Below are positions 1,852-10,491 of a stretch of DNA of 64,000 bases, one piece after another; position 1 is the stretch's first letter; each line of letters begins with the position of its first letter. The stretch comes from an uncultured Actinomycetota bacterium (lineage in GTDB: Bacteria > Actinomycetota > Actinomycetes > CAWDCV01), in NCBI GenBank assembly GCA_963728125.1, contig CAVSIZ010000013.1, forward strand, positions 98,803 through 162,802, written 5' to 3'. The notes beneath the pieces are model-generated. The model saw only the letters and a program-made list of their open reading frames with translations. It was not told the origin of the DNA and did no database searches. Both the position numbers and the translations under genes were made by a program.

Positions 1852-2649
1852 ATGAATACGCGACTCGCCCTAAGAACCGCTCTTGCGGTGGTCGCGCTTG
1901 CCCTCGTGACGTTGGTGTGGCCGGTTGGCTCCGCTGACGCGGTCGAACCCGCCGATCCTGGCGTCCCGGCAGACGCCGTCAGCTGGGCCGATCGCAGCGG
2001 TGTGCGCGCGGTCACCGAAGCATTGGCGACCAACCCGCAGTACGGCGACACCTACCTGTCCTGGACCGGGATCACCATCGGCAGCCTGCGTACCGAGCTC
2101 GCAGTCACTCCTGAGTTCGTCGCCAGCACCGGGCCGGCATCCCGAGACCAGCTACCGGTGGCGGAGTACATCGCGCCGGTCTTCTACCAGGGGGAGCTGA
2201 TCGCCGCCGTCGGCTTCCGGCGAGCGGCGGACGGCGGATGGGAGTTAGGCCCGCAGATCTACCCGGAGGAGGTTGGCGTCGCCGTCGACGACCTGGCGTA
2301 CGGCGTGGTGGTGCTCTACGAACAGACCAACGGCGCTTGGTTCGCCCTCAATGGCGAGGCGCTGAGCCCTCTGGGTCCGACGAGCGCCGCACTGCTGGAC
2401 GACGGGCCGATCGACCTGACCCGGTTGCGCGACCGGCTCGCGCAGGGTCCGACCACGCCGTCGGCTACCGCCCCGGCCGAAGCCGGGATCGTTTCTCCCG
2501 CGGCAACTGAACCCGCGCGCAGCGTGGGCCTGTGGTTCTGGCTCACCGTTGGCGCGGCCGTAGTCCTCGTGGTCGCGATCGTGCTCCAGATGATGAGCGT
2601 CCGCCGCCGCCGTAAGCGCCGGCGTCGCCACATCCGCCGCCTCGCCTAA
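1852..2649 (+). CDS. secreted/membrane-anchored hypothetical protein
   Basis: Signal peptide MNTRLALRTALAVVALALVTLVWPVGSADA; C-terminal transmembrane helix followed by a poly-Arg/Lys tail. Confidence 0.5.
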   Translation: MNTRLALRTALAVVALALVTLVWPVGSADAVEPADPGVPADAVSWADRSGVRAVTEALATNPQYGDTYLSWTGITIGSLRTELAVTPEFVASTGPASRDQLPVAEYIAPVFYQGELIAAVGFRRAADGGWELGPQIYPEEVGVAVDDLAYGVVVLYEQTNGAWFALNGEALSPLGPTSAALLDDGPIDLTRLRDRLAQGPTTPSATAPAEAGIVSPAATEPARSVGLWFWLTVGAAVVLVVAIVLQMMSVRRRRKRRRRHIRRLA

Positions 2650-2675
2650 CCCCACGGTCGCCCACCTGCCACCGA

Positions 2676-2736
2676 AATGATCACGTCTTCGTGATCATTC
2701 AGGGCGATACGCGTTCTGTAACGGGCGTATCGCCCT
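2676..2736. terminator. two adjacent perfect hairpins between convergent genes (probable bidirectional terminators)
   Basis: aatgatcacg-tcttc-cgtgatcatt (10-bp stem) followed by agggcgatacgc-gttctgtaacgg-gcgtatcgccct (12-bp stem); there is no clear U-tract. Confidence 0.4.
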
Positions 2737-2769
2737 CACTCGTCGCGTATCGCCGTACCTCCGGAGGAC

Positions 2770-3015
2770 CTAAACATTCGCGATGTGCTCGCGGGCCGCG
2801 GCAATCAGCCGTTGCTCGGCGTTCTCCCCATCGGTGTACTGATCCTTGATCAGGTCGCCGATCCACTCGCCCGCGAGGGCTAGGTAACTTGCCACGAGCT
2901 CGAGCATCTCCTGACGGCGTTCTTCCCGCCGACGAGAGCGCTGCCGCTGCCAGTCCAGAGTGGGAGCGAGCGCGGCGCCCAGGACAACGCCGATCAGTGC
3001 CAGCACCGTCTCCAT
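2770..3015 (-). CDS. small membrane protein (hypothetical)
   Basis: 81 aa with an N-terminal transmembrane helix METVLALIGVVLGAALAP; has no overlap with the thyX start. Confidence 0.35.
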   Translation of the reverse strand: METVLALIGVVLGAALAPTLDWQRQRSRRREERRQEMLELVASYLALAGEWIGDLIKDQYTDGENAEQRLIAAAREHIANV

Positions 3016-3128
3016 GGTTGTCCTCCCTGTCCGTCATGGGAGTAACGCTGACACACCTCCCAGGGGTCAAGATCGTGTCGGTGCTCGGGACTAGCCTCGG
3101 CGCAGCAATCGTGGTGAGGGAGCGGCGC

Positions 3129-4782
3129 GTGACGGATCAGTCCGACATCGAGTTCCGCAGCGATATGACGGTCGAGCTCGTCAAGGCGAACGCCAGCGAC
3201 GCCGATGTCCTCTTCGCTGCCCGGGTGTCGACCAAGGGTGAGCAATCGCTCGAGGACGTGGGCTCCGACGCAACCAGGTCTCGGGGACTCATCAGCTACC
3301 TGATGCGCGATCGGCACGGCTGCTACGACGAGCAGACCGAGGTGCTGACGAATCAGGGCTGGAAGCCCTGGCCGGACGTAACCGGGCACGAGCAGTTCGT
3401 GACCCGATCGAGCGACGGACTGATCGAGTATCAGCGGGCGTCGCATCACATTGCGAAGCGTTACGACGGACCAATGATCCGCATCGACAGCGCCGACGTC
3501 GATCTGCTGGTCACGCCCGACCATCGCATGTGGGTGGCCGGGCGACGATGACGACGACTGGCGATTCCGGCCGGCGGCGGATCTGCGCGACGGCTCCTAT
3601 CGACTCGCCACCGGTGGGGGTCACTGGATCACCAACGAGCCCAACGATGTCTACGGCACGGTTTGCGCTCCTGGGGTTCTTCCTGGCCGTCGGGGAGTTC
3701 GCAGGCAGCGCGGCGCGATTCCGGCTACGTGACGAGGCGGAGATCTCGTTCTTCCTTGAGCAGGCAGCGGCTGCCGAGTTCCCGGTCACCACTAGATCGC
3801 GGAGTTATTCCGACGTATCCGCCGACGAGGACTTCTTCCTCGCCGCGAAGAAGTGCGCTGCCGATGACAGCGCGAACGGCATTCCACGCGAGGTGCTCGA
3901 CGCTTCGCCCGAGTCGCTGGACGCGCTCCACGCCGGGTTGTTTGCGCCACATTCGTCGACGGGGGAGCGCACCCTGACAACGACCAGTCCTGTGCTTGCC
4001 GGCCAGCTCCAGGAGACGGCGCTCAAGGGTGGGCAAGTCGCAGTGGTGAGCCAGTCGGATGACGGGCGGCGTTGGCGTGTAGCGATGCGTCCTGCAGACC
4101 AGGCGCCCATACCCGCATCGGCACGACCACCGAGGCACAACGACGGCAGGTCACCGTCGAGCACTATCGCGGGCGGATCTACTGCGTCACCGTTCCGAAT
4201 GGAACGCTGTACGTCCGCCGCAACGGCAAGCCGCTGTGGTGCGGGAACAGCCCGTTCGAGCACAACTCGATGACGTTCTTCGTCAGCGCGCCGATCTTCG
4301 TCTTCCGCGAGTTCCAGCGTCACCGCATCGCGTCGTACAACGAGGAGAGCGGTCGCTATCGAGAGCTGCGGCCCGTCTTCTACGTTCCCGGCCCCGAGCG
4401 CAAGCTCGTTCAAGAGGGCAAGCCGGGCCACTACGTCTTCGTGGATGGGACGTCCGAGCAGCACGATGTCGTGGTCAGCGCCACCAAGGAGTCGTGCCGC
4501 CAGGCCTACGCCGCGTACAAGCAGATGCTCGACGTTGGCATCGCTCGAGAGATCGCCCGCGGTGTGCTGCCAGTCGCGACGTACTCCTCCATGTACGTCA
4601 CGGTCAACGCGCGCTCCCTGATGAATTTCCTGTCGCTGCGCACCAAGCGCGAGGGGTCGACGTTCCCGTCCTTCCCGCAGCGCGAGATCGAGATGGTGGC
4701 AGAGCAGATGGAGGCTGAGTGGGCTCGGCTGATGCCGCTCACCCACGCGGCGTTCAACGCGGCGGGACGTGTCGCGCCCTGA
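3129..4782 (+). pseudogene. thyX: flavin-dependent thymidylate synthase ThyX interrupted by an intein; the exteins lie in different frames (net +1), so it is either a decayed gene or assembly indels
   Basis: N-extein (V/M)TDQSDIEFRSDMTVELVKANASDADVLFAARVS...LISYLMRDRHG followed by Cys; C-extein SPFEHNSMTFFVSAPIFVFREFQRHRIASYNEESGRY carries the ThyX RHR-x7-S motif; a GTG at 3129 has a GGGAG RBS (alternative ATG at 3165); synteny with dapA and rnj. Confidence 0.7.
3321..4248 (+). mobile_element. intein within thyX, with a LAGLIDADG-like endonuclease domain; 928 nt with at least three internal frame changes and an atypical C-terminal ...WCGN
   Basis: Block A is CYDEQTEVLTNQGW; block B is LLVTPDHRMWVAG. 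In the next frame: DDDDDWRFRPAADLRDGSYRLAT. In the third frame: ALLGFFLAVGEFAG (LAGLIDADG-like). Block F/G is RIYCVTVPNGTLYVRRNGKPLWCGN followed by Ser +1. Confidence 0.65.
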
Positions 4783-4817
4783 CGAGAAGCCCGACGACTG
4801 CCGGTAGCGTGACCGAC

Positions 4818-5723
4818 ATGACCTCAAGCACCGACGCCCTCACGCCGTTCGGGCGAGTGCTCACCGCGATGGTGTCGCCCTTCACCGCGGGCGGTGAGCT
4901 CGACGTCGAGGGCGCCCAGCAGCTCGCCACGTTCCTGGTCGATAACGGCAACGACGGCCTCGTCGTCAACGGCACGACCGGGGAATCGCCCACCACGACC
5001 GACGCGGAGAAGGAGCGGCTGCTCCGTGCGGTCGTCGACGCCGTCGGCGACCGGGCCCACATCGTGGCTGGCGTCGGCACCAACGACACCGCCCACACCG
5101 TCGAGCTGGCCCGCGCCGCGGAAAAGACAGGTGTCCACGGCCTGCTTGTCGTCACGCCCTACTACAACAAGCCGCCGCAGGCCGGACTCGTCGCGCACTT
5201 CACCGCTGCCGCCGATGCGACGGCGCTCCCGGTCATGCTCTACGACATCCCCGGCCGGACCGGGACGCCCATCGCGTCCGAGACGCTGGTACGGCTCGCC
5301 GAGCACGAGCGCATCATCGCCGTCAAGGACGCCAAGGGCGATCTCGCCGAGTCCTCCTGGGTGCTGGCGCGCACTGATCTGGCGTACTACTCCGGCGACG
5401 ACAAGGTCACGCTGCCCCTTCTGTCGATCGGCGCTGTCGGCGTCGTCGGCGTGCCGACTCACCTGTTCGGCGCGCAGACCCACGAGATGATCGAGTCCTA
5501 CGTCGCAGGTGACGTCGCCGGCGCCCTGGCGCTGCACCGTCAGCTGCTGCCGGTGTTCTTCGGGTTCTTCCGTACCCAGGGCGTCATCCTCACCAAGGCC
5601 GCGTTGCGACTGGCCGGCCTCCCTGGCGGCCCCGTGCGCTCACCGCTCGTCGAGGCGACCGACGACGAGGTGGCTCGGCTGCGTTCCGACATGATCGAGG
5701 CGGGCTGGGTCGCGACCGGATGA
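4818..5723 (+). CDS. dapA: 4-hydroxy-tetrahydrodipicolinate synthase
   Basis: GTTGE motif; the conserved Lys lies in the IIAVKDAKG region; DapA/NAL family; 4-nt ATGA overlap with rnj. Confidence 0.9.
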   Translation: MTSSTDALTPFGRVLTAMVSPFTAGGELDVEGAQQLATFLVDNGNDGLVVNGTTGESPTTTDAEKERLLRAVVDAVGDRAHIVAGVGTNDTAHTVELARAAEKTGVHGLLVVTPYYNKPPQAGLVAHFTAAADATALPVMLYDIPGRTGTPIASETLVRLAEHERIIAVKDAKGDLAESSWVLARTDLAYYSGDDKVTLPLLSIGAVGVVGVPTHLFGAQTHEMIESYVAGDVAGALALHRQLLPVFFGFFRTQGVILTKAALRLAGLPGGPVRSPLVEATDDEVARLRSDMIEAGWVATG

Positions 5724-7405
5724 GTCACCCCCACCCCGAACTCGGCGCCCCTCCACCGCTTCCTCCGAATGGCCTGCGCATCGTGCCTCTCGGCGGCCTT
5801 GGCGAGATCGGCCGCAACATGACGGTCCTCGAGTACGACGGCCGACTGCTCGTCGTCGACTGCGGCGTGCTGTTCCCCGAGGAGGACCAGCCCGGAGTCG
5901 ACCTGATCCTTCCCGACTTCAGCTCGATCCGCGGCCGCCTCGGCGACATCGAAGCAATCGTCCTTACCCACGCCCATGAGGACCACATCGGCGCCGTGCC
6001 GTACCTGCTGCGCGAACGCTCGGACATCCCGCTCATCGGCTCGCGGCTGACGTTGGCCCTGGTCGAGTCGAAACTGCAGGAGCACCGGATCGATCCCTAC
6101 ACCCTCGAGGTACGTGAGGGTCAGCGCGAGCGACTCGGGCCGTTCGAGTGCGAGTTCCTCGCCGTCAATCACTCCATCCCCGACGCGCTGGCGGTTGCCG
6201 TTCGCACCGGCGCCGGACTGCTGCTGCACACCGGCGACTTCAAGATGGACCAGCTTCCGCTGGACGGACGGCTCACCGACCTGGGCGGCTTTGCGCGCCT
6301 CGGCGAGGAGGGCGTCGACCTTCTCCTATGCGACTCCACGAACGCCGAGGTGCCGGGCTTCGTCACACCGGAGCGCAACATCAAGCCGGTGCTGCGCCAG
6401 GTCGTCGCCGATGCGCGCAGACGGGTGATCGTTGCCTGCTTTGCCAGTCACGTTCACCGCGTCCAGCAGGTCCTCGACGTCGCCGCCGAGCATGGCCGCC
6501 GGGTCGCCTTCGTCGGCCGCTCGATGGTGCGCAACATGAATGTCGCACGGGATCTGGGCTATCTCACCATCCCGCCGGGGCTCATGGTCGACCTCGCCGC
6601 GATCGATGACCTCCCGCCCGACGAGGTCCTGCTCATCTCCACCGGGTCCCAGGGGGAGCCGCTGTCGGCGCTGTCGCGGATGGCCAATCGCGATCACCCC
6701 ATTCGCATCGAGGAGGGGGACACCGTCATCCTCGCCTCGTCACTGATTCCGGGGAACGAGACGGCGGTCTACCGCGTCGTCAACGGGTTGATGCGCTGGG
6801 GAGCGCGCGTCATCCATCGCGACAACGCCCTGGTCCACGTGTCCGGCCACGCCTCAGCCGGCGAGCTGCTGTACGTGTTCAACCTCGTACGGCCGCGCAA
6901 TCTCATGCCGGTCCATGGCGAGCCTCGCCACCTGCTCGCCTGCGCGGATCTCGCGGTGATGACGGGCGTGCCGCGTGACCGGATCGTCATGGCCGAGGAC
7001 GGCGTGGTGGTCGACCTGGTCGACGGCGTCGCGCGCATCGTTGGCGTCGTCCCCTGTGGCTACGTCTACGTCGACGGGCTCTCCGTCGGCGACATCACGG
7101 AATCGTCCTTGAAGGATCGGCGCATTCTCGGCGACGAGGGCTTCGTGTCGGTGTTCGTCGTCGTGGACTCCCAGACCGGAAAGATTGTCGGCGGCCCGGA
7201 GATCCAGGCGCGTGGCTCCGGCATCGAGGACGCCGCCTTCGACGAGGTCGTCGAGCGCATCCAACAGGTGCTCAACGACATGGCAGCGGAAGGGTCGCTC
7301 GATCTGCATCAAATCCAGCAGCGCGTGCGCCGCACGGTCGGCCGTTGGGTCAACGACCGCTACCGGCGCCGCCCGATGATCGTCCCTGTCGTCGTCGAGG
7401 TCTGA
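5720..7405 (+). CDS. rnj: ribonuclease J
   Basis: 561 aa; metallo-beta-lactamase HAHEDHIG motif plus the beta-CASP and RNase J C-terminal domains. Confidence 0.9.
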   Translation: MSHPHPELGAPPPLPPNGLRIVPLGGLGEIGRNMTVLEYDGRLLVVDCGVLFPEEDQPGVDLILPDFSSIRGRLGDIEAIVLTHAHEDHIGAVPYLLRERSDIPLIGSRLTLALVESKLQEHRIDPYTLEVREGQRERLGPFECEFLAVNHSIPDALAVAVRTGAGLLLHTGDFKMDQLPLDGRLTDLGGFARLGEEGVDLLLCDSTNAEVPGFVTPERNIKPVLRQVVADARRRVIVACFASHVHRVQQVLDVAAEHGRRVAFVGRSMVRNMNVARDLGYLTIPPGLMVDLAAIDDLPPDEVLLISTGSQGEPLSALSRMANRDHPIRIEEGDTVILASSLIPGNETAVYRVVNGLMRWGARVIHRDNALVHVSGHASAGELLYVFNLVRPRNLMPVHGEPRHLLACADLAVMTGVPRDRIVMAEDGVVVDLVDGVARIVGVVPCGYVYVDGLSVGDITESSLKDRRILGDEGFVSVFVVVDSQTGKIVGGPEIQARGSGIEDAAFDEVVERIQQVLNDMAAEGSLDLHQIQQRVRRTVGRWVNDRYRRRPMIVPVVVEV

Positions 7406-7430
7406 GACGTCTGCGTTTCTCTCGCCCCTG

Positions 7431-7634
7431 ATGCAACGGGGCGCTGTTGCCCTCGTGCGCCGCTACCAGCGCGGCGCAGCGCCCGACAGTCGCGCACGGT
7501 GCCGTTACCAACCGACCTGCTCCACGTACGCAATCGAAGCCATCGAGCGGTACGGCCTGCTGGTCGGAGGAACGCGCGCTTTGCGCCGCATCCTGCGCTG
7601 TCGACCACCCTTCGGCGGAGTGGACGAGCCCTGA
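7431..7634 (+). CDS. yidD: membrane protein insertion efficiency factor YidD-like
   Basis: CRYQPTCSTYAIEAIERYG...RILRCRPPFGGVDEP matches the YidD signature. Confidence 0.75.
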   Translation: MQRGAVALVRRYQRGAAPDSRARCRYQPTCSTYAIEAIERYGLLVGGTRALRRILRCRPPFGGVDEP

Positions 7635-7650
7635 GCTTCGTCGAGCAGGC

Positions 7651-7962
7651 TCAACGGTGACGCCGCGGCCCCATCGACATCAGGCACCCACCCGGGAGCG
7701 GACGGATGTCTACACCGTCCGGATTGAACAGGTCGTACGGATCCACGAGGACCAGCTCTTCCGGCGGCGGGACTTCGCGCAGCTCCCGTCGCCGCGGTGT
7801 CGGCGGAACCGGGGGCGGCGCGCTCGGGAGCGTGTTGGGCAGCCGGGTCCGAACCGCTTCGCGCAGTGCCTCGCCATGCGGCACGGTGGCCCCGCACGTC
7901 TCGCACGTGCGACCGCCTCTATTCACCGCCTCGCACACGCGGCAGCGCCACACGGCGCTCAT
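7651..7962 (-). CDS. small zinc-ribbon protein, translationally coupled to the upstream kinase remnant
   Basis: CRVCEAVNRGGRTCETC (CxxC...CxxC); ATGA overlap with the kinase-like ORF stop at 7959-7962. Confidence 0.5.
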   Translation of the reverse strand: MSAVWRCRVCEAVNRGGRTCETCGATVPHGEALREAVRTRLPNTLPSAPPPVPPTPRRRELREVPPPEELVLVDPYDLFNPDGVDIRPLPGGCLMSMGPRRHR

Positions 7963-8506
7963 CGCGCATCTCGGTCGGTGAGCTTATGCACGAGCTTCCC
8001 GATCAAGCCGCCCGTTCGAACCGGTTCGGTCGGAGACGCAGACTTCAGTGCCGTCCGCAGGCCCTTTCCGCGCAACGACGTGGGCCCCTTCGGCTTCCTG
8101 GGCATGAAGAGCGAGTCGCTCGGGGGCCGCAGCGCCATCAGGGTGGTATGCACCTCAGCGATCGTCGGTCGACGTGCTGCCTCGGCGGACATCATCCGGT
8201 CGATGAGACCGGCCAGGTCGGCATCGACGCCGGTCCGAGGGACGCGCAGCGTCCCTCCGCTGCGAACGGCCACGGCCGGCTCGTGGTACGTCGCAACGTC
8301 GAACGGGGGCGGTGCTGCAGTGAGGTACTCGGTGTAGATGAGTCCCAGCGCGAAGATGTCGGAAGCCACGCCGAGCTGGCTGGAAACTCCTTGATGAAGA
8401 AGGTTCGGCCTCCCCGCTCCGCAAACGTCCACTTGCTCAGGCCGGCGCCGACGACCTTGAAGTCCTCGAGGATGGTGTAGCCGTTAATGACGTCCCCGGC
8501 CTTCAC
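7959..8506 (-). pseudogene. Ser/Thr protein kinase remnant: Gly-loop/beta3 joined directly to the C-lobe by an internal deletion, plus a frameshift near 8381-8400
   Basis: GTG at 8506 overlaps the PP2C stop (GTGA). YTILEDFKVVGAGLSKWTFAERGGRTFFIKEF resembles subdomains I-II. A frame shift follows, then SDIFALGLIYTEYLTAAPPPFD...LAGLIDRMMSAEAARRPT (subdomains IX-XI). No HRD/DFG region is present, and 184 codons is too short for a kinase domain. Confidence 0.55.
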
Positions 8507-9645
8507 GAGGACACCTCTTCCGCCGGCGCCGCCTCGCGCGGATCGGCCTCGTGGCCTGCGGCGACGCCGTCCTCCGCCTCCGGCTCGTCCGGCCGCAGGT
8601 ACCGCTCGTACCCGGGCTTGTACCGACCCCAGATTTCGGCGATGGTGTCGTCTTGGCGCTGCCGCGCCGCCGCCAGCTGACGTTCGGCGTCGGCTACCGC
8701 TCGTGCGCGTTCCTCCATTGGCGCGATGAATTCCCGTTCGAGCTCTTCTACGCGCGACCTGAACAGCTCCTGGAACTGAGCGAACTGCGCACCGATGCCG
8801 AGCAGCGACATGGCTGCGTCGTCGCCGGTGACGGCGGTGATGTCCCTCTGCAACGCCGCCGACCAGGAGTCGGGATTTCTCGAACCGAGAAGGTGTGACA
8901 GGACCAGGTGCTCGAAGTGCATGGGAGATCGGACATAGCCGAAGCAACCGTCGGTCGCGCACGCCACCAGGAACGGAGCCTCTATCTCTGTCTTGCGATA
9001 GTTGACGTGGAACTCCGTATCCGCCGACATGGCATTGCTCACCACCGAGTCCCGGCGCAGATTCGACATCGCGTCACCCGGGTCGCGCAGATCATCGGTC
9101 GTGAGCTGGCGAACCCCTTGGGGTTCGAACGCGTAGGCCCGTGAGTCGCCAGCCCACAGGACGTGGCAGGCCCACGTCGCGCCGCCAGGTTGGGTTCGCT
9201 GCAGGGCGACGAGGGCCATCGTCGTCGGCAGCGCCCGTAGCAAGCGGGAACGCAAGCCACTCGCCGGCGCCTTGAGCTCATCAAGTCGCTCGACCAGCGC
9301 CTCTCGCACCGACCGGCGCAGATCCTCCGCGGTCGCGCGCCCGTTGAGATTCCAATCGGGCTCGAGGAGAGTCAACATCCGTCGCTCGACGACATCCCGA
9401 GCGATTCGTGATGCCAGATACGCCCCCGTGCGCGGACCATCCGGCGTCTCGTACACCGTCCCGCCGGCGCCGCCCATGCCGTCGAACACGGCGATCAGAC
9501 CGAGGTCGCGGCCATCCCGGAGGATGGGGTCTGAGTCCTCACCTTGATCGGGGATCTTGCCGAGATTGAAGGCAAACGAGATCGTCGGACCAGGTGCCGA
9601 CCCAAGGCCGGTACCCGCTGAGGGTGCGCCTGAGCTTTCGCTCAC
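8503..9645 (-). CDS. PP2C-family Ser/Thr protein phosphatase with a C-terminal coiled-coil extension
   Basis: LGLIAVFDGMGGAGG and WAGDSRAYAF are PP2C metal-binding motifs; the GTG start overlaps the vWA stop (GTGA). Confidence 0.8.
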   Translation of the reverse strand: MSESSGAPSAGTGLGSAPGPTISFAFNLGKIPDQGEDSDPILRDGRDLGLIAVFDGMGGAGGTVYETPDGPRTGAYLASRIARDVVERRMLTLLEPDWNLNGRATAEDLRRSVREALVERLDELKAPASGLRSRLLRALPTTMALVALQRTQPGGATWACHVLWAGDSRAYAFEPQGVRQLTTDDLRDPGDAMSNLRRDSVVSNAMSADTEFHVNYRKTEIEAPFLVACATDGCFGYVRSPMHFEHLVLSHLLGSRNPDSWSAALQRDITAVTGDDAAMSLLGIGAQFAQFQELFRSRVEELEREFIAPMEERARAVADAERQLAAARQRQDDTIAEIWGRYKPGYERYLRPDEPEAEDGVAAGHEADPREAAPAEEVSS

Positions 9646-10322
9646 ACCGAGTTGCCGATCGAGTCAATGATGGTGCCGTAGTCCACCTCTGACAGACCGC
9701 CTCCTGCCTGCGACGGGTGGTGCACGACGTTCTCCCACACCCCCGAGATGTCGCTCCAGCCGGGACCGTCCGGGGCGAACAAGATGAGCCGCTTGGAGCT
9801 CGATCCCATCGGTCCCTGCTCGTTCTCCCACAGATCCGTGAGGGCGCTGAAGTCGGCCGGCACCCGCGAGGACAGGTCTGCGGGCAGCACCGAGGGATCG
9901 AGCGGCTGTGCCGGTTGGTCGGTCCAGATAACGATCACCTGCCGTCGACGATCGCCGCTACTCGTCCACGGCGAGTTGACGGCTAGGGCCACGGCCTCCA
10001 GCCCCGATTCAGGTGCATCCCCGCCACCCTCGGCCAGCAGCCCGTTGACGAAGTCGGAGAAGCCTGCGCGCTCTGCCGGCAGCGTGTAGAACGCAGACTC
10101 CTGGAAGGCCGCTGCTCCGTCCGCCTTGAAGTCGCGGAACGCGAGCACGCGTACCCGCAGCTGGTCAACGTTCTTTCCCTTTTCGGTCAGGTTTTTCTGT
10201 ACGTCGTCGTAGAAGCGCAGGGCGTTGTCTTTCACCTTGTCGATGATCGGCGTCATGCTCCCGGTCACGTCGATGCAGAACACGATGTCGACCGCATAGC
10301 TCAGCCCGCGGGGCGCCGCCAT
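9642..10322 (-). CDS. von Willebrand factor type A domain protein (TerY-like)
   Basis: MIDAS motif DIVFCIDVTGSM; vWA fold of about 227 aa from MAAPRGLSYAV; the ORF stays open upstream to 10664, so the start is uncertain. Confidence 0.7.
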   Translation of the reverse strand: MAAPRGLSYAVDIVFCIDVTGSMTPIIDKVKDNALRFYDDVQKNLTEKGKNVDQLRVRVLAFRDFKADGAAAFQESAFYTLPAERAGFSDFVNGLLAEGGGDAPESGLEAVALAVNSPWTSSGDRRRQVIVIWTDQPAQPLDPSVLPADLSSRVPADFSALTDLWENEQGPMGSSSKRLILFAPDGPGWSDISGVWENVVHHPSQAGGGLSEVDYGTIIDSIGNSV

Positions 10323-10491
10323 GCTGGTTTGCTCCGTTGCGACGGGAGAGGGAGCGGCCGTGAAGCGTCGGCCGGCGGGGTACTCGTCGCTGGCCGTCGT
10401 CGTCGAAGTCTGACCCACCGTCCTTCCCGCGAACCGTCGAGCTGGCTGCGCCGTATAGGCAGCAGGTCGTCTCAGGTGTCCCGGGGGAGCC

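Follow-up and report, generated by a model that had tools for sequence, protein, structure and literature searches.

The thyX locus described here raises the question of whether an intein-bearing gene with a thrice-broken reading frame is decaying in its host or was damaged only in assembly. The locus lies in a stretch of 64,000 nucleotides (nt) from an uncultured Actinomycetota bacterium (contig CAVSIZ010000013.1, positions 98,803 to 162,802; the whole stretch is called the window, and coordinates are counted from its first letter). In the window, thyX occupies 3129–4782 of the plus strand, from a GTG start at 3129 to a stop codon at 4780–4782, and is followed downstream by dapA and an RNase J gene (synteny thyX-dapA-rnj). 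A first-pass annotation, made from the letters alone, had recognised an intein in this gene and had offered two explanations for its broken frame, namely that thyX is decaying or that the intein is real and assembly indels cluster within it. The second fits much better than the first, as the lesions are confined to the intein interior in five assemblies, the removal of four bases repairs the frame, and related assemblies carry the signatures of mixed haplotypes. From these sequence comparisons we consider it likely that the insert is a real, probably splicing-competent intein, and that its frame breaks are artefacts of a consensus built from mixed haplotypes.

The intein and its frame breaks

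The N-extein (3129–3320; ...GLISYLMRDRHG) ends in ...YLMRDRHG at 3320, and is followed by a 928-nt insert (3321–4248) and then by the C-extein (4249–4782; SPFEHNSMTFF...), so that the insertion point falls within the RHG/SPFEH motif of ThyX (slashes mark splice junctions). The insert opens with TGC (Cys1, 3321–3323) and closes with AAG CCG CTG TGG TGC GGG AAC (KPLWCGN); its last codon encodes the terminal Asn (4246–4248) and is followed by the Ser+1 codon AGC (4249–4251). The first-pass annotation had placed the insert at 3321–4248, with a Cys start and a ...WCGN/S end, and these boundaries are exact to the base. When the two flanks were joined conceptually, a complete ThyX was obtained, which matched Pfam Thy1 with 171 bits (profile positions 2–190 of 191) and TIGR02170 with 204 bits (positions 2–211 of 211; cut-off 87.9), far beyond chance, and which contains the ThyX RHR...S signature as RHRIASYNEESGRY in the C-extein. 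Failure of the flanks to align to ThyX had been named as the result that would overturn the assignment of an intein to thyX at the RHG/S site; the flanks do align, end to end, and the assignment stands.

The insert has the hallmarks of an intein: Cys1, a block B with TPDH (TxxH; V-T-P-D-H at 3510–3524, in the frame of the N-extein), the terminal Asn and Ser+1. Blocks A, B and F, which had been read from the sequence before, are all present, together with block G and a LAGLIDADG-type middle domain, and the features expected of a HINT fold were found. We read 3321–4248 as a class-1-type intein, in which a HINT domain for splicing is combined with a homing-endonuclease domain of the LAGLIDADG type. 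The N-terminal splicing region, from block A onward (3321–3485), shares the frame of the N-extein, and the C-terminal splicing region (4142–4248) that of the C-extein; blocks F and G lie at 4174–4248, with the block-F Cys at 4183–4185 and the penultimate Gly at 4243–4245. A scan of the conceptual intein with NCBIfam profiles gave no intein-domain match. An uninterrupted reading frame from the N-extein through the intein into the C-extein is absent from the window as assembled, where there are three breaks and one resulting stop; this absence is most likely an assembly artefact.

An intact orthologue is present in a sister of the window's species, the metagenome-assembled genome (MAG) MFD04850.bin.1.9 (L005), which is about 94.5% identical to the window at the nucleotide level over 13 kb and carries the same short (S) allele of the intein as an unbroken frame of 308 codons (924 nt). 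Compared with L005, the 928 nt of the window (309 x 3 + 1) contain exactly four extra bases: a G at 3544 (break 1), which creates a TGA at 3549–3551; a C at 3645 (break 2); and a GC at about 4103–4104 (break 3), the placement of which is ambiguous within 4102–4105. The contrasting k-mers at the breaks are GGCCGGGCGACGATGAC versus GGCCGGGCACGATGAC, CCCAACGATGTC versus CCCAAGATGTC, and ACCAGGCGCCCAT versus ACCAGGCCCAT (L005 form ACCTGGCCCAT). Deletion of these four bases yields a stop-free open reading frame (ORF) of 1650 nt (549 codons) that is colinear with L005. In a three-frame translation of the uncorrected sequence, the coding path follows the N-extein frame to the TGA at 3549–3551, continues in the +1 frame (DDDDDWRFRPAADLRDGSYRLATGGGHW) and then in the +2 frame (ARFALLGFFLAVGEF ... 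VAMRPADQ), and returns to the +1 frame for the last part of the intein (TRIGTTTEAQRRQVTVEHYRGRIYCVTVPNGTLYVRRNGKPLWCGN/SPFEH...) and the whole C-extein. This translation bears out the earlier count of three breaks and a C-extein in the +1 frame relative to the N-extein. Two of the ranges then proposed for the breaks, 3538–3548 and 4060–4140, contain the true sites, whereas the third, 3655–3665, was placed about 10 nt too far downstream of 3645.

In the corrected frame, the ratio of nonsynonymous to synonymous substitution rates (dN/dS) between the window and L005 was 0.04 for the N-extein, 0.03 for the C-extein, 0.07 for the N-terminal end of the intein and 0.35 for the endonuclease remnant. 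Synonymous divergence (dS) was 0.18 in the endonuclease remnant (0.08–0.20 across interior segments) and 0.16–0.20 in the exteins. A frame plot of GC content at third codon positions, run over the whole window for further frameshifts, was too noisy at 65–68% GC.

The LAGLIDADG endonuclease domain of the first-pass annotation is recognisable as a LAGLIDADG-type middle domain, with the motif ALLGFFLAVGEF at 3665–3700, but it is a dead remnant in which both catalytic Asp residues are lost. Comparison with the family of homologous inteins described below shows that motif 1 (LLGFFLAVG, 3668–3694) has Val in place of the catalytic Asp, and that motif 2 (LHAGLFAPHSS, 3926–3958) has His in place of the Asp of the family's SDGS; neither motif offers an Asp or Glu at the catalytic position. 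Among 79 intact family members, motif 1 reads [LVI]xG[FL]F[IV]GDG (...GFFIGDG) and has the Asp in 66, and motif 2 (SDGS/GDGS) keeps it in 61 by pattern match, with most of 15 unmatched sequences also showing Asp. L005 likewise has neither Asp, reading LAVG at motif 1 and ARQSS at motif 2. Pfam LAGLIDADG_3 gave no match for the S allele, versus 34.7 bits for the homologue P0003; many homologues have precomputed PF14528 matches, and the family profile matches the homing endonuclease PI-PkoII (2cw7; E = 1.3e-3, profile positions 119–261). Since both catalytic acids are lost, established LAGLIDADG enzymology predicts that the S-allele endonuclease is presumably dead and has no homing activity. Judged from the sequence, decay is confined to the endonuclease domain, and the gene gives no other sign of it.

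Lesions and alleles across related assemblies

Four ENA assemblies with Flye-style contig names (L001, L002, L164 and L165) share the synteny of the window, with flanks that are 98–99.9% identical to it, and together with the window they make up the same-species set to which L005 is sister. All five assemblies are frame-broken, each differently and with lesions mostly at different positions (3 in the window, 6 in L001, 5–6 in L002, 11 plus two stops in L164, and 10 in L165). Over 7.4 kb compared in six assemblies, coding indels all fall in the intein interior (3486–4141), with a sole exception at window 317. Between the window and the other assemblies, the N-extein (192 nt) differs by 0–2 single-nucleotide polymorphisms (SNPs) and the C-extein (534 nt) by 0–1, with no gap column in either. 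The intein ends (165 and 107 nt) differ by 0–3 SNPs and 0–1 gap columns, with 0–3 differences at the N-terminal end and 0–2 at the C-terminal end. The interior (about 650 nt) differs by 27–203 SNPs and 4–75 gap columns. Summed over exteins and intein ends (about 1000 nt), the differences come to 0–6 SNPs and a single gap column, located in the C-terminal intein end of L002. A pseudogene is expected to show lesions and relaxed constraint throughout the gene, and neither was found, the dN/dS of the exteins being 0.03–0.04. A gene killed by frameshifts would gather lesions along its whole length; that is not the pattern here, which argues strongly against decay of the gene as a whole.

The interior occurs in two forms, the short S form (window, L001 and L005) and a long (L) form that is clearest in L165. 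The L165 intein contains ten ±1 frameshifts, and its frame-corrected translation is stop-free, keeps LLGFF-GDG and LLDGLWHSD, and can be aligned from end to end with the P0004/P0046 intein, which comes from a short-read JGI contig. On this evidence, both S and L are real alleles. The JGI contig itself (3300067032) is a relative with the thyX-dapA-rnj arrangement and an L-like intein with intact LAGLIDADG motifs; that intein has one in-frame stop at a conserved Tyr position (directly after GKRT) and appears in the gene calls as two ORFs that share one frame.

Two further interiors combine the alleles. Even the hypervariable intergenic region of L164 is nearly that of the window (2 differences in 478). 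In its interior, however, positions of S type (111) and of L type (108) form a mosaic of blocks, with 55 runs where 110 would be expected (z = -7.5); the interior of L002 is similarly mosaic (z = -5.8). The blocks average about 13 nt. In length L164 exceeds both alleles, and at the junctions it has bases from each. The interleaving of S and L in L164 was at one point taken as proof of chimerism and then dropped, since a genuinely intermediate allele also interleaves; the case for a chimeric L164 is made by the runs test, its window-like flanks and its excess length. As sequence patterns, blocks of about 13 nt are not credible as products of recombination and fit a majority-rule consensus of mixed reads. 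A diversity-generating retroelement was rejected as the source of the variation, as the changes include indels and are not restricted to A positions, and neither a template repeat nor a reverse transcriptase was seen in the vicinity.

The window has a hybrid of its own outside thyX. At 317, within a DUF2461 gene (minus strand, about 1–467), a 1-nt insertion in GATCGACC joins both haplotypes, which read GATC-TCC in L001 and L005 and GATG-ACC in L002; the gene is frameshifted in the window only and is intact at 220 amino acids in L001, L002, L164 and L165. The window assembly thus carries hybrid-haplotype indels. The indels specific to L001 fall exactly on sites that are polymorphic between L005 and the window. 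Within the intein, a six-way alignment places the extra base of break 1 at an extra-base column of the L allele (a different +1 is present in L001, about 5 nt away), and the extra C of break 2 is the base that the L allele carries at that column. At the position of break 3, L001 also carries a +1.

The Microflora Danica MAGs, from which L005 derives, were assembled from Nanopore reads only, using metaFlye and one Medaka round, with microdiversity as a limiting factor (PMC12313526). It is well known that consensus sequences built from Nanopore reads can retain frameshift indels (PMC9262707). The window, L001, L002, L164 and L165 presumably come from the same project as L005. Among thyX-intein loci, 6 of 13 on Flye-named contigs are broken, versus 1 of 78 in other assemblies (Fisher test of broken frame against Flye naming: p = 1.7e-5 per locus, 0.027 per species). 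In L005, a 1-nt deletion (equivalent to window 12198) splits an MFS-type transporter that is a single ORF of 407 amino acids in the window, so this MAG with an intact intein has sporadic frameshifts of its own.

We propose that co-occurring strains have identical flanks and two diverged intein alleles, S and L, and that their reads would have been collapsed into one consensus by long-read assembly (Nanopore, metaFlye and one Medaka round). The breaks (+1 at 3544, +1 at 3645 and +2 at about 4103) would then most likely exist in no cell's DNA. Translation in the cell would run through the intein, and, by established intein chemistry, Cys1, TPDH, blocks F and G and the terminal Asn would then release the intein from the precursor and ligate ...RHG to SPFEH.... 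The S allele would be a non-mobile intein whose splicing is still required for ThyX. S and L would have identical ends and exteins presumably because homologous recombination keeps the flanks uniform as far as the edge of a segment that has diverged too much to take part.

Alternative explanations

Several points weigh against an assembly artefact. This explanation draws on assembled sequences and falls short of proof at the level of the molecule, and Nanopore as the technology behind the window is presumed from its relatives (contig naming, ENA accession range and the title of L005). S and L would have to co-occur in all five samples. Not one assembly of this species holds a clean open S or L allele, and a long-dead gene would look alike. 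Break 3 does not coincide with an indel column of the L allele, and the inserted bases are not classic homopolymer errors.

The last of these points, and the fact that five of five same-species assemblies are broken, would also suit a true pseudogene, in which frameshifts inside the intein have inactivated thyX, the gene is decaying, and deoxythymidine monophosphate (dTMP) is supplied by thyA or salvage encoded elsewhere. Lesions 1 and 2 are similarly placed in the window and L001, as would be expected of lesions inherited from one ancestor, and the endonuclease had died before the split from L005. Against a pseudogene, the two assemblies differ in sequence at these shared sites, and the four-base correction leaves no stop, with a dN/dS of 0.35 in the restored frame. 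Moreover, the 3–11 frameshifts per assembly all lie in about 650 nt, with none in the 726 nt of the exteins, where drift would be expected to place them, and the 272 nt of the intein ends hold the single gap column of L002. The fine S/L mosaics of L164 and L002 (55 runs in about 700 alignment columns) are also implausible as recombination. A pseudogene is, in our judgement, unlikely. A tblastn search with E. coli ThyA found nothing in the 64-kb window, which says little of the remaining genome. A further alternative is an interior that is truly hypervariable in cells, owing to repeated S/L gene conversion or to mutagenesis of this region, in which case the mosaics and part of the indels would be real alleles. 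Divergence in the interior is 10- to 100-fold above that of the flanks in every pair, and both alleles are real (S is intact in L005, and L165 resembles the short-read contig), as this would require; however, blocks of about 13 nt are far below known conversion tracts, the excess length of L164 over both parent alleles and the bases of both at its junctions speak against such a process, and the interior dS between the window and L005 equals that of the exteins, so the mutation rate is not raised. We therefore give this explanation very little credence.

Lesions that spare the splice-junction regions and exteins are also what a functional split ("fractured") gene would show, with the two halves translated separately, joined by trans-splicing, and separated by an endonuclease remnant that serves as a frameshift-tolerant spacer. 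In the window, the N-terminal fragment stops just after block B, and an ORF from a TTG at 4072 spans blocks F and G and the C-extein. In L002, L164 and L165, however, the first frameshift lies upstream of block B (TPDH), leaving an N-terminal fragment without an essential splicing motif, and the TTG-4072 ORF is out of frame in L001. The strands that follow block B (WRFRPAADL...GGGHW), which are kept in the mini-intein P0018, are out of frame with both window fragments, and a promoter and terminator scan of 2600–4900 found nothing, including no promoter-like site. An early reading of the identical flanks and diverged interior as a split intein was rejected once the lesions upstream of block B were seen, and a functional split intein is nearly excluded by these sequences. 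It is hardly credible, too, that the frameshifts are real while the exteins and splice junctions are under selection, with ThyX made from the frame-broken gene by a frame-tolerant route (complementing fragments or recoding) and the dead endonuclease region acting as a spacer. More likely than such a route is that a single soil species harbours, at the same thyX site and between identical exteins, two deeply diverged intein alleles, S with a dead endonuclease and L with its motifs retained.

Real frameshifts would leave the species with either a source of dTMP that bypasses ThyX or some undescribed way of producing ThyX. If the frameshifts are products of a mixed-haplotype consensus, as we favour, the locus is a cautionary case: Nanopore-only metagenome assembly may merge alleles of co-occurring strains that diverge between identical flanks, and the frameshifted chimera that results mimics a decaying gene. 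The comparison also points to a within-species dimorphism of S and L alleles, and their coexistence, if true, would be a population snapshot of the homing cycle.

Other differences among the assemblies lie around thyX. Upstream of the gene, 2650–3128 is hypervariable, with many SNPs and indels of 1–58 nt, and for a minus-strand ORF at 2770–3015 (81 amino acids) the relatives call other lengths or none. Downstream, a segment of about 3 kb (approximately 7386–10394), which includes a 103-amino-acid ORF, a Ser/Thr kinase gene, a PP2C-like phosphatase gene and other features, is shared by the window, L001, L002 and L164 and is missing from L005 and L165, where rnj directly precedes a hydrolase gene. 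Within this segment, at 8382/8383, the window misses 502 nt (not a multiple of 3) relative to L001 and L002, inside what is called as a 349-amino-acid Ser/Thr kinase gene; L164 has the same 349-amino-acid call. The gap removes the catalytic core of the kinase and shifts the frame, there is no obvious direct repeat at the junction, and it is either a real deletion or a misassembly.

The intein family and its relation to known inteins

A search of the frame-corrected insert against 5.8 billion proteins found many ThyX proteins with a homologous insert at the same RHG/C ... GN/[ST]PFEH position (e.g. P0002, 542 amino acids, and P0003), among them P0018, a mini-intein form of 151 amino acids at the same thyX site. 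Both junctions were present at 89 loci in scans of reference genomes and JGI metagenomes, and 85 of these loci are open and a multiple of 3 in length. The JGI scan contributed about 80 family members, none closer than about 50% identity to the window species, and no short-read copy of the window locus. In the 79 intact inteins at the RHG/[ST] site that were read in frame for residue counts, Cys1, the preceding RHG, the penultimate Gly and the terminal Asn are each invariant (79/79); VTPDH is found in 73, Cys at position 4 of block F in 74 and a W[CS]GN end in 74, and position +1 is occupied by Thr (56) or Ser (23). The Gly-Asn terminus of the window, which the first-pass annotation had called atypical, is not so at this site: it is the normal C-terminus of a large, mostly actinobacterial thyX intein family, and a penultimate Gly is a documented functional intein variant (PMC5050341).

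Among the protein-search matches P0022–P0109, inteins of the same family (CYDxxTEV... start) also occur at a second ThyX site, NVSRVF/C, as well as in MCM-like helicases (KEKFG/C), GTP cyclohydrolase I (AEHL/C), DNA methyltransferases and one ThyA-domain protein (P0075). Other frame-broken members are L044, a Flye-named MAG (MFD05454.bin.2.75) with two isolated 1-nt shifts (6127 and 6608) in an otherwise intact intein, and L147, with one shift (571) beside a short deletion. In P0015 (433 amino acids, from an 83-kb ENA contig), the overall frame is open and the endonuclease region reads frameshifted relative to its relatives (SSISGRNARSRSSL versus FNLRKLRERSFL), a pattern that looks like endonuclease decay through compensated frameshifts.

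Since ThyX inteins, degenerate LAGLIDADG domains and Gly-Asn termini are all already known, the locus adds little to intein biology as such; it does define a sizeable family of about 85 thyX loci with an invariant Cys1, the RHG/[ST] site, Gly-Asn and a block-F Cys. The intein of Trichodesmium erythraeum ThyX (Ter ThyX) likewise resides in a flavin-dependent thymidylate synthase, and it splices efficiently in E. coli (PMC3620165). ThyX-like inteins of mycobacteriophages sit in active centres (PMC5050341). The family of the window is defined by its RHG/[ST]PFEH site and Gly-Asn end, and counts about 85 loci from actinobacteria and soil metagenomes. The Gly-Asn end is shared with the intein of the mycobacteriophage Bethlehem recombination directionality factor (RDF), in which the Gly supports fast splicing and its change to His slows the reaction (PMC5050341); in the family of the window, the Gly is invariant across the bacterial members.

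In its endonuclease domain, the S allele differs from the LAGLIDADG intein homing endonucleases PI-PkoII and PI-PfuI by the replacement of Asp by Val and His and by its lack of a LAGLIDADG_3 match. The best match of the family to a solved structure is the class 3 AceL NrdHF intein. Class 3 inteins are marked by the triplet Trp(B12)-Cys(F4)-Thr(G5) (WCT), and the family differs from them in that Cys1 is invariant, no block-B Trp is conserved and G5 is Cys or Ser rather than Thr, with Cys alone of the triplet kept at F4 (numbering by eye). Together with the structural match, the family-wide block-F Cys is a lead towards a possible class-3-like chemistry and not a classification. Finally, the window as assembled resembles fractured genes with split inteins, as its N-terminal fragment extends past block B, its C-terminal fragment begins before block F and an endonuclease remnant lies between them; unlike fractured genes, however, several assemblies of the window species have elements that splicing requires out of frame, and we do not regard the intein as split.

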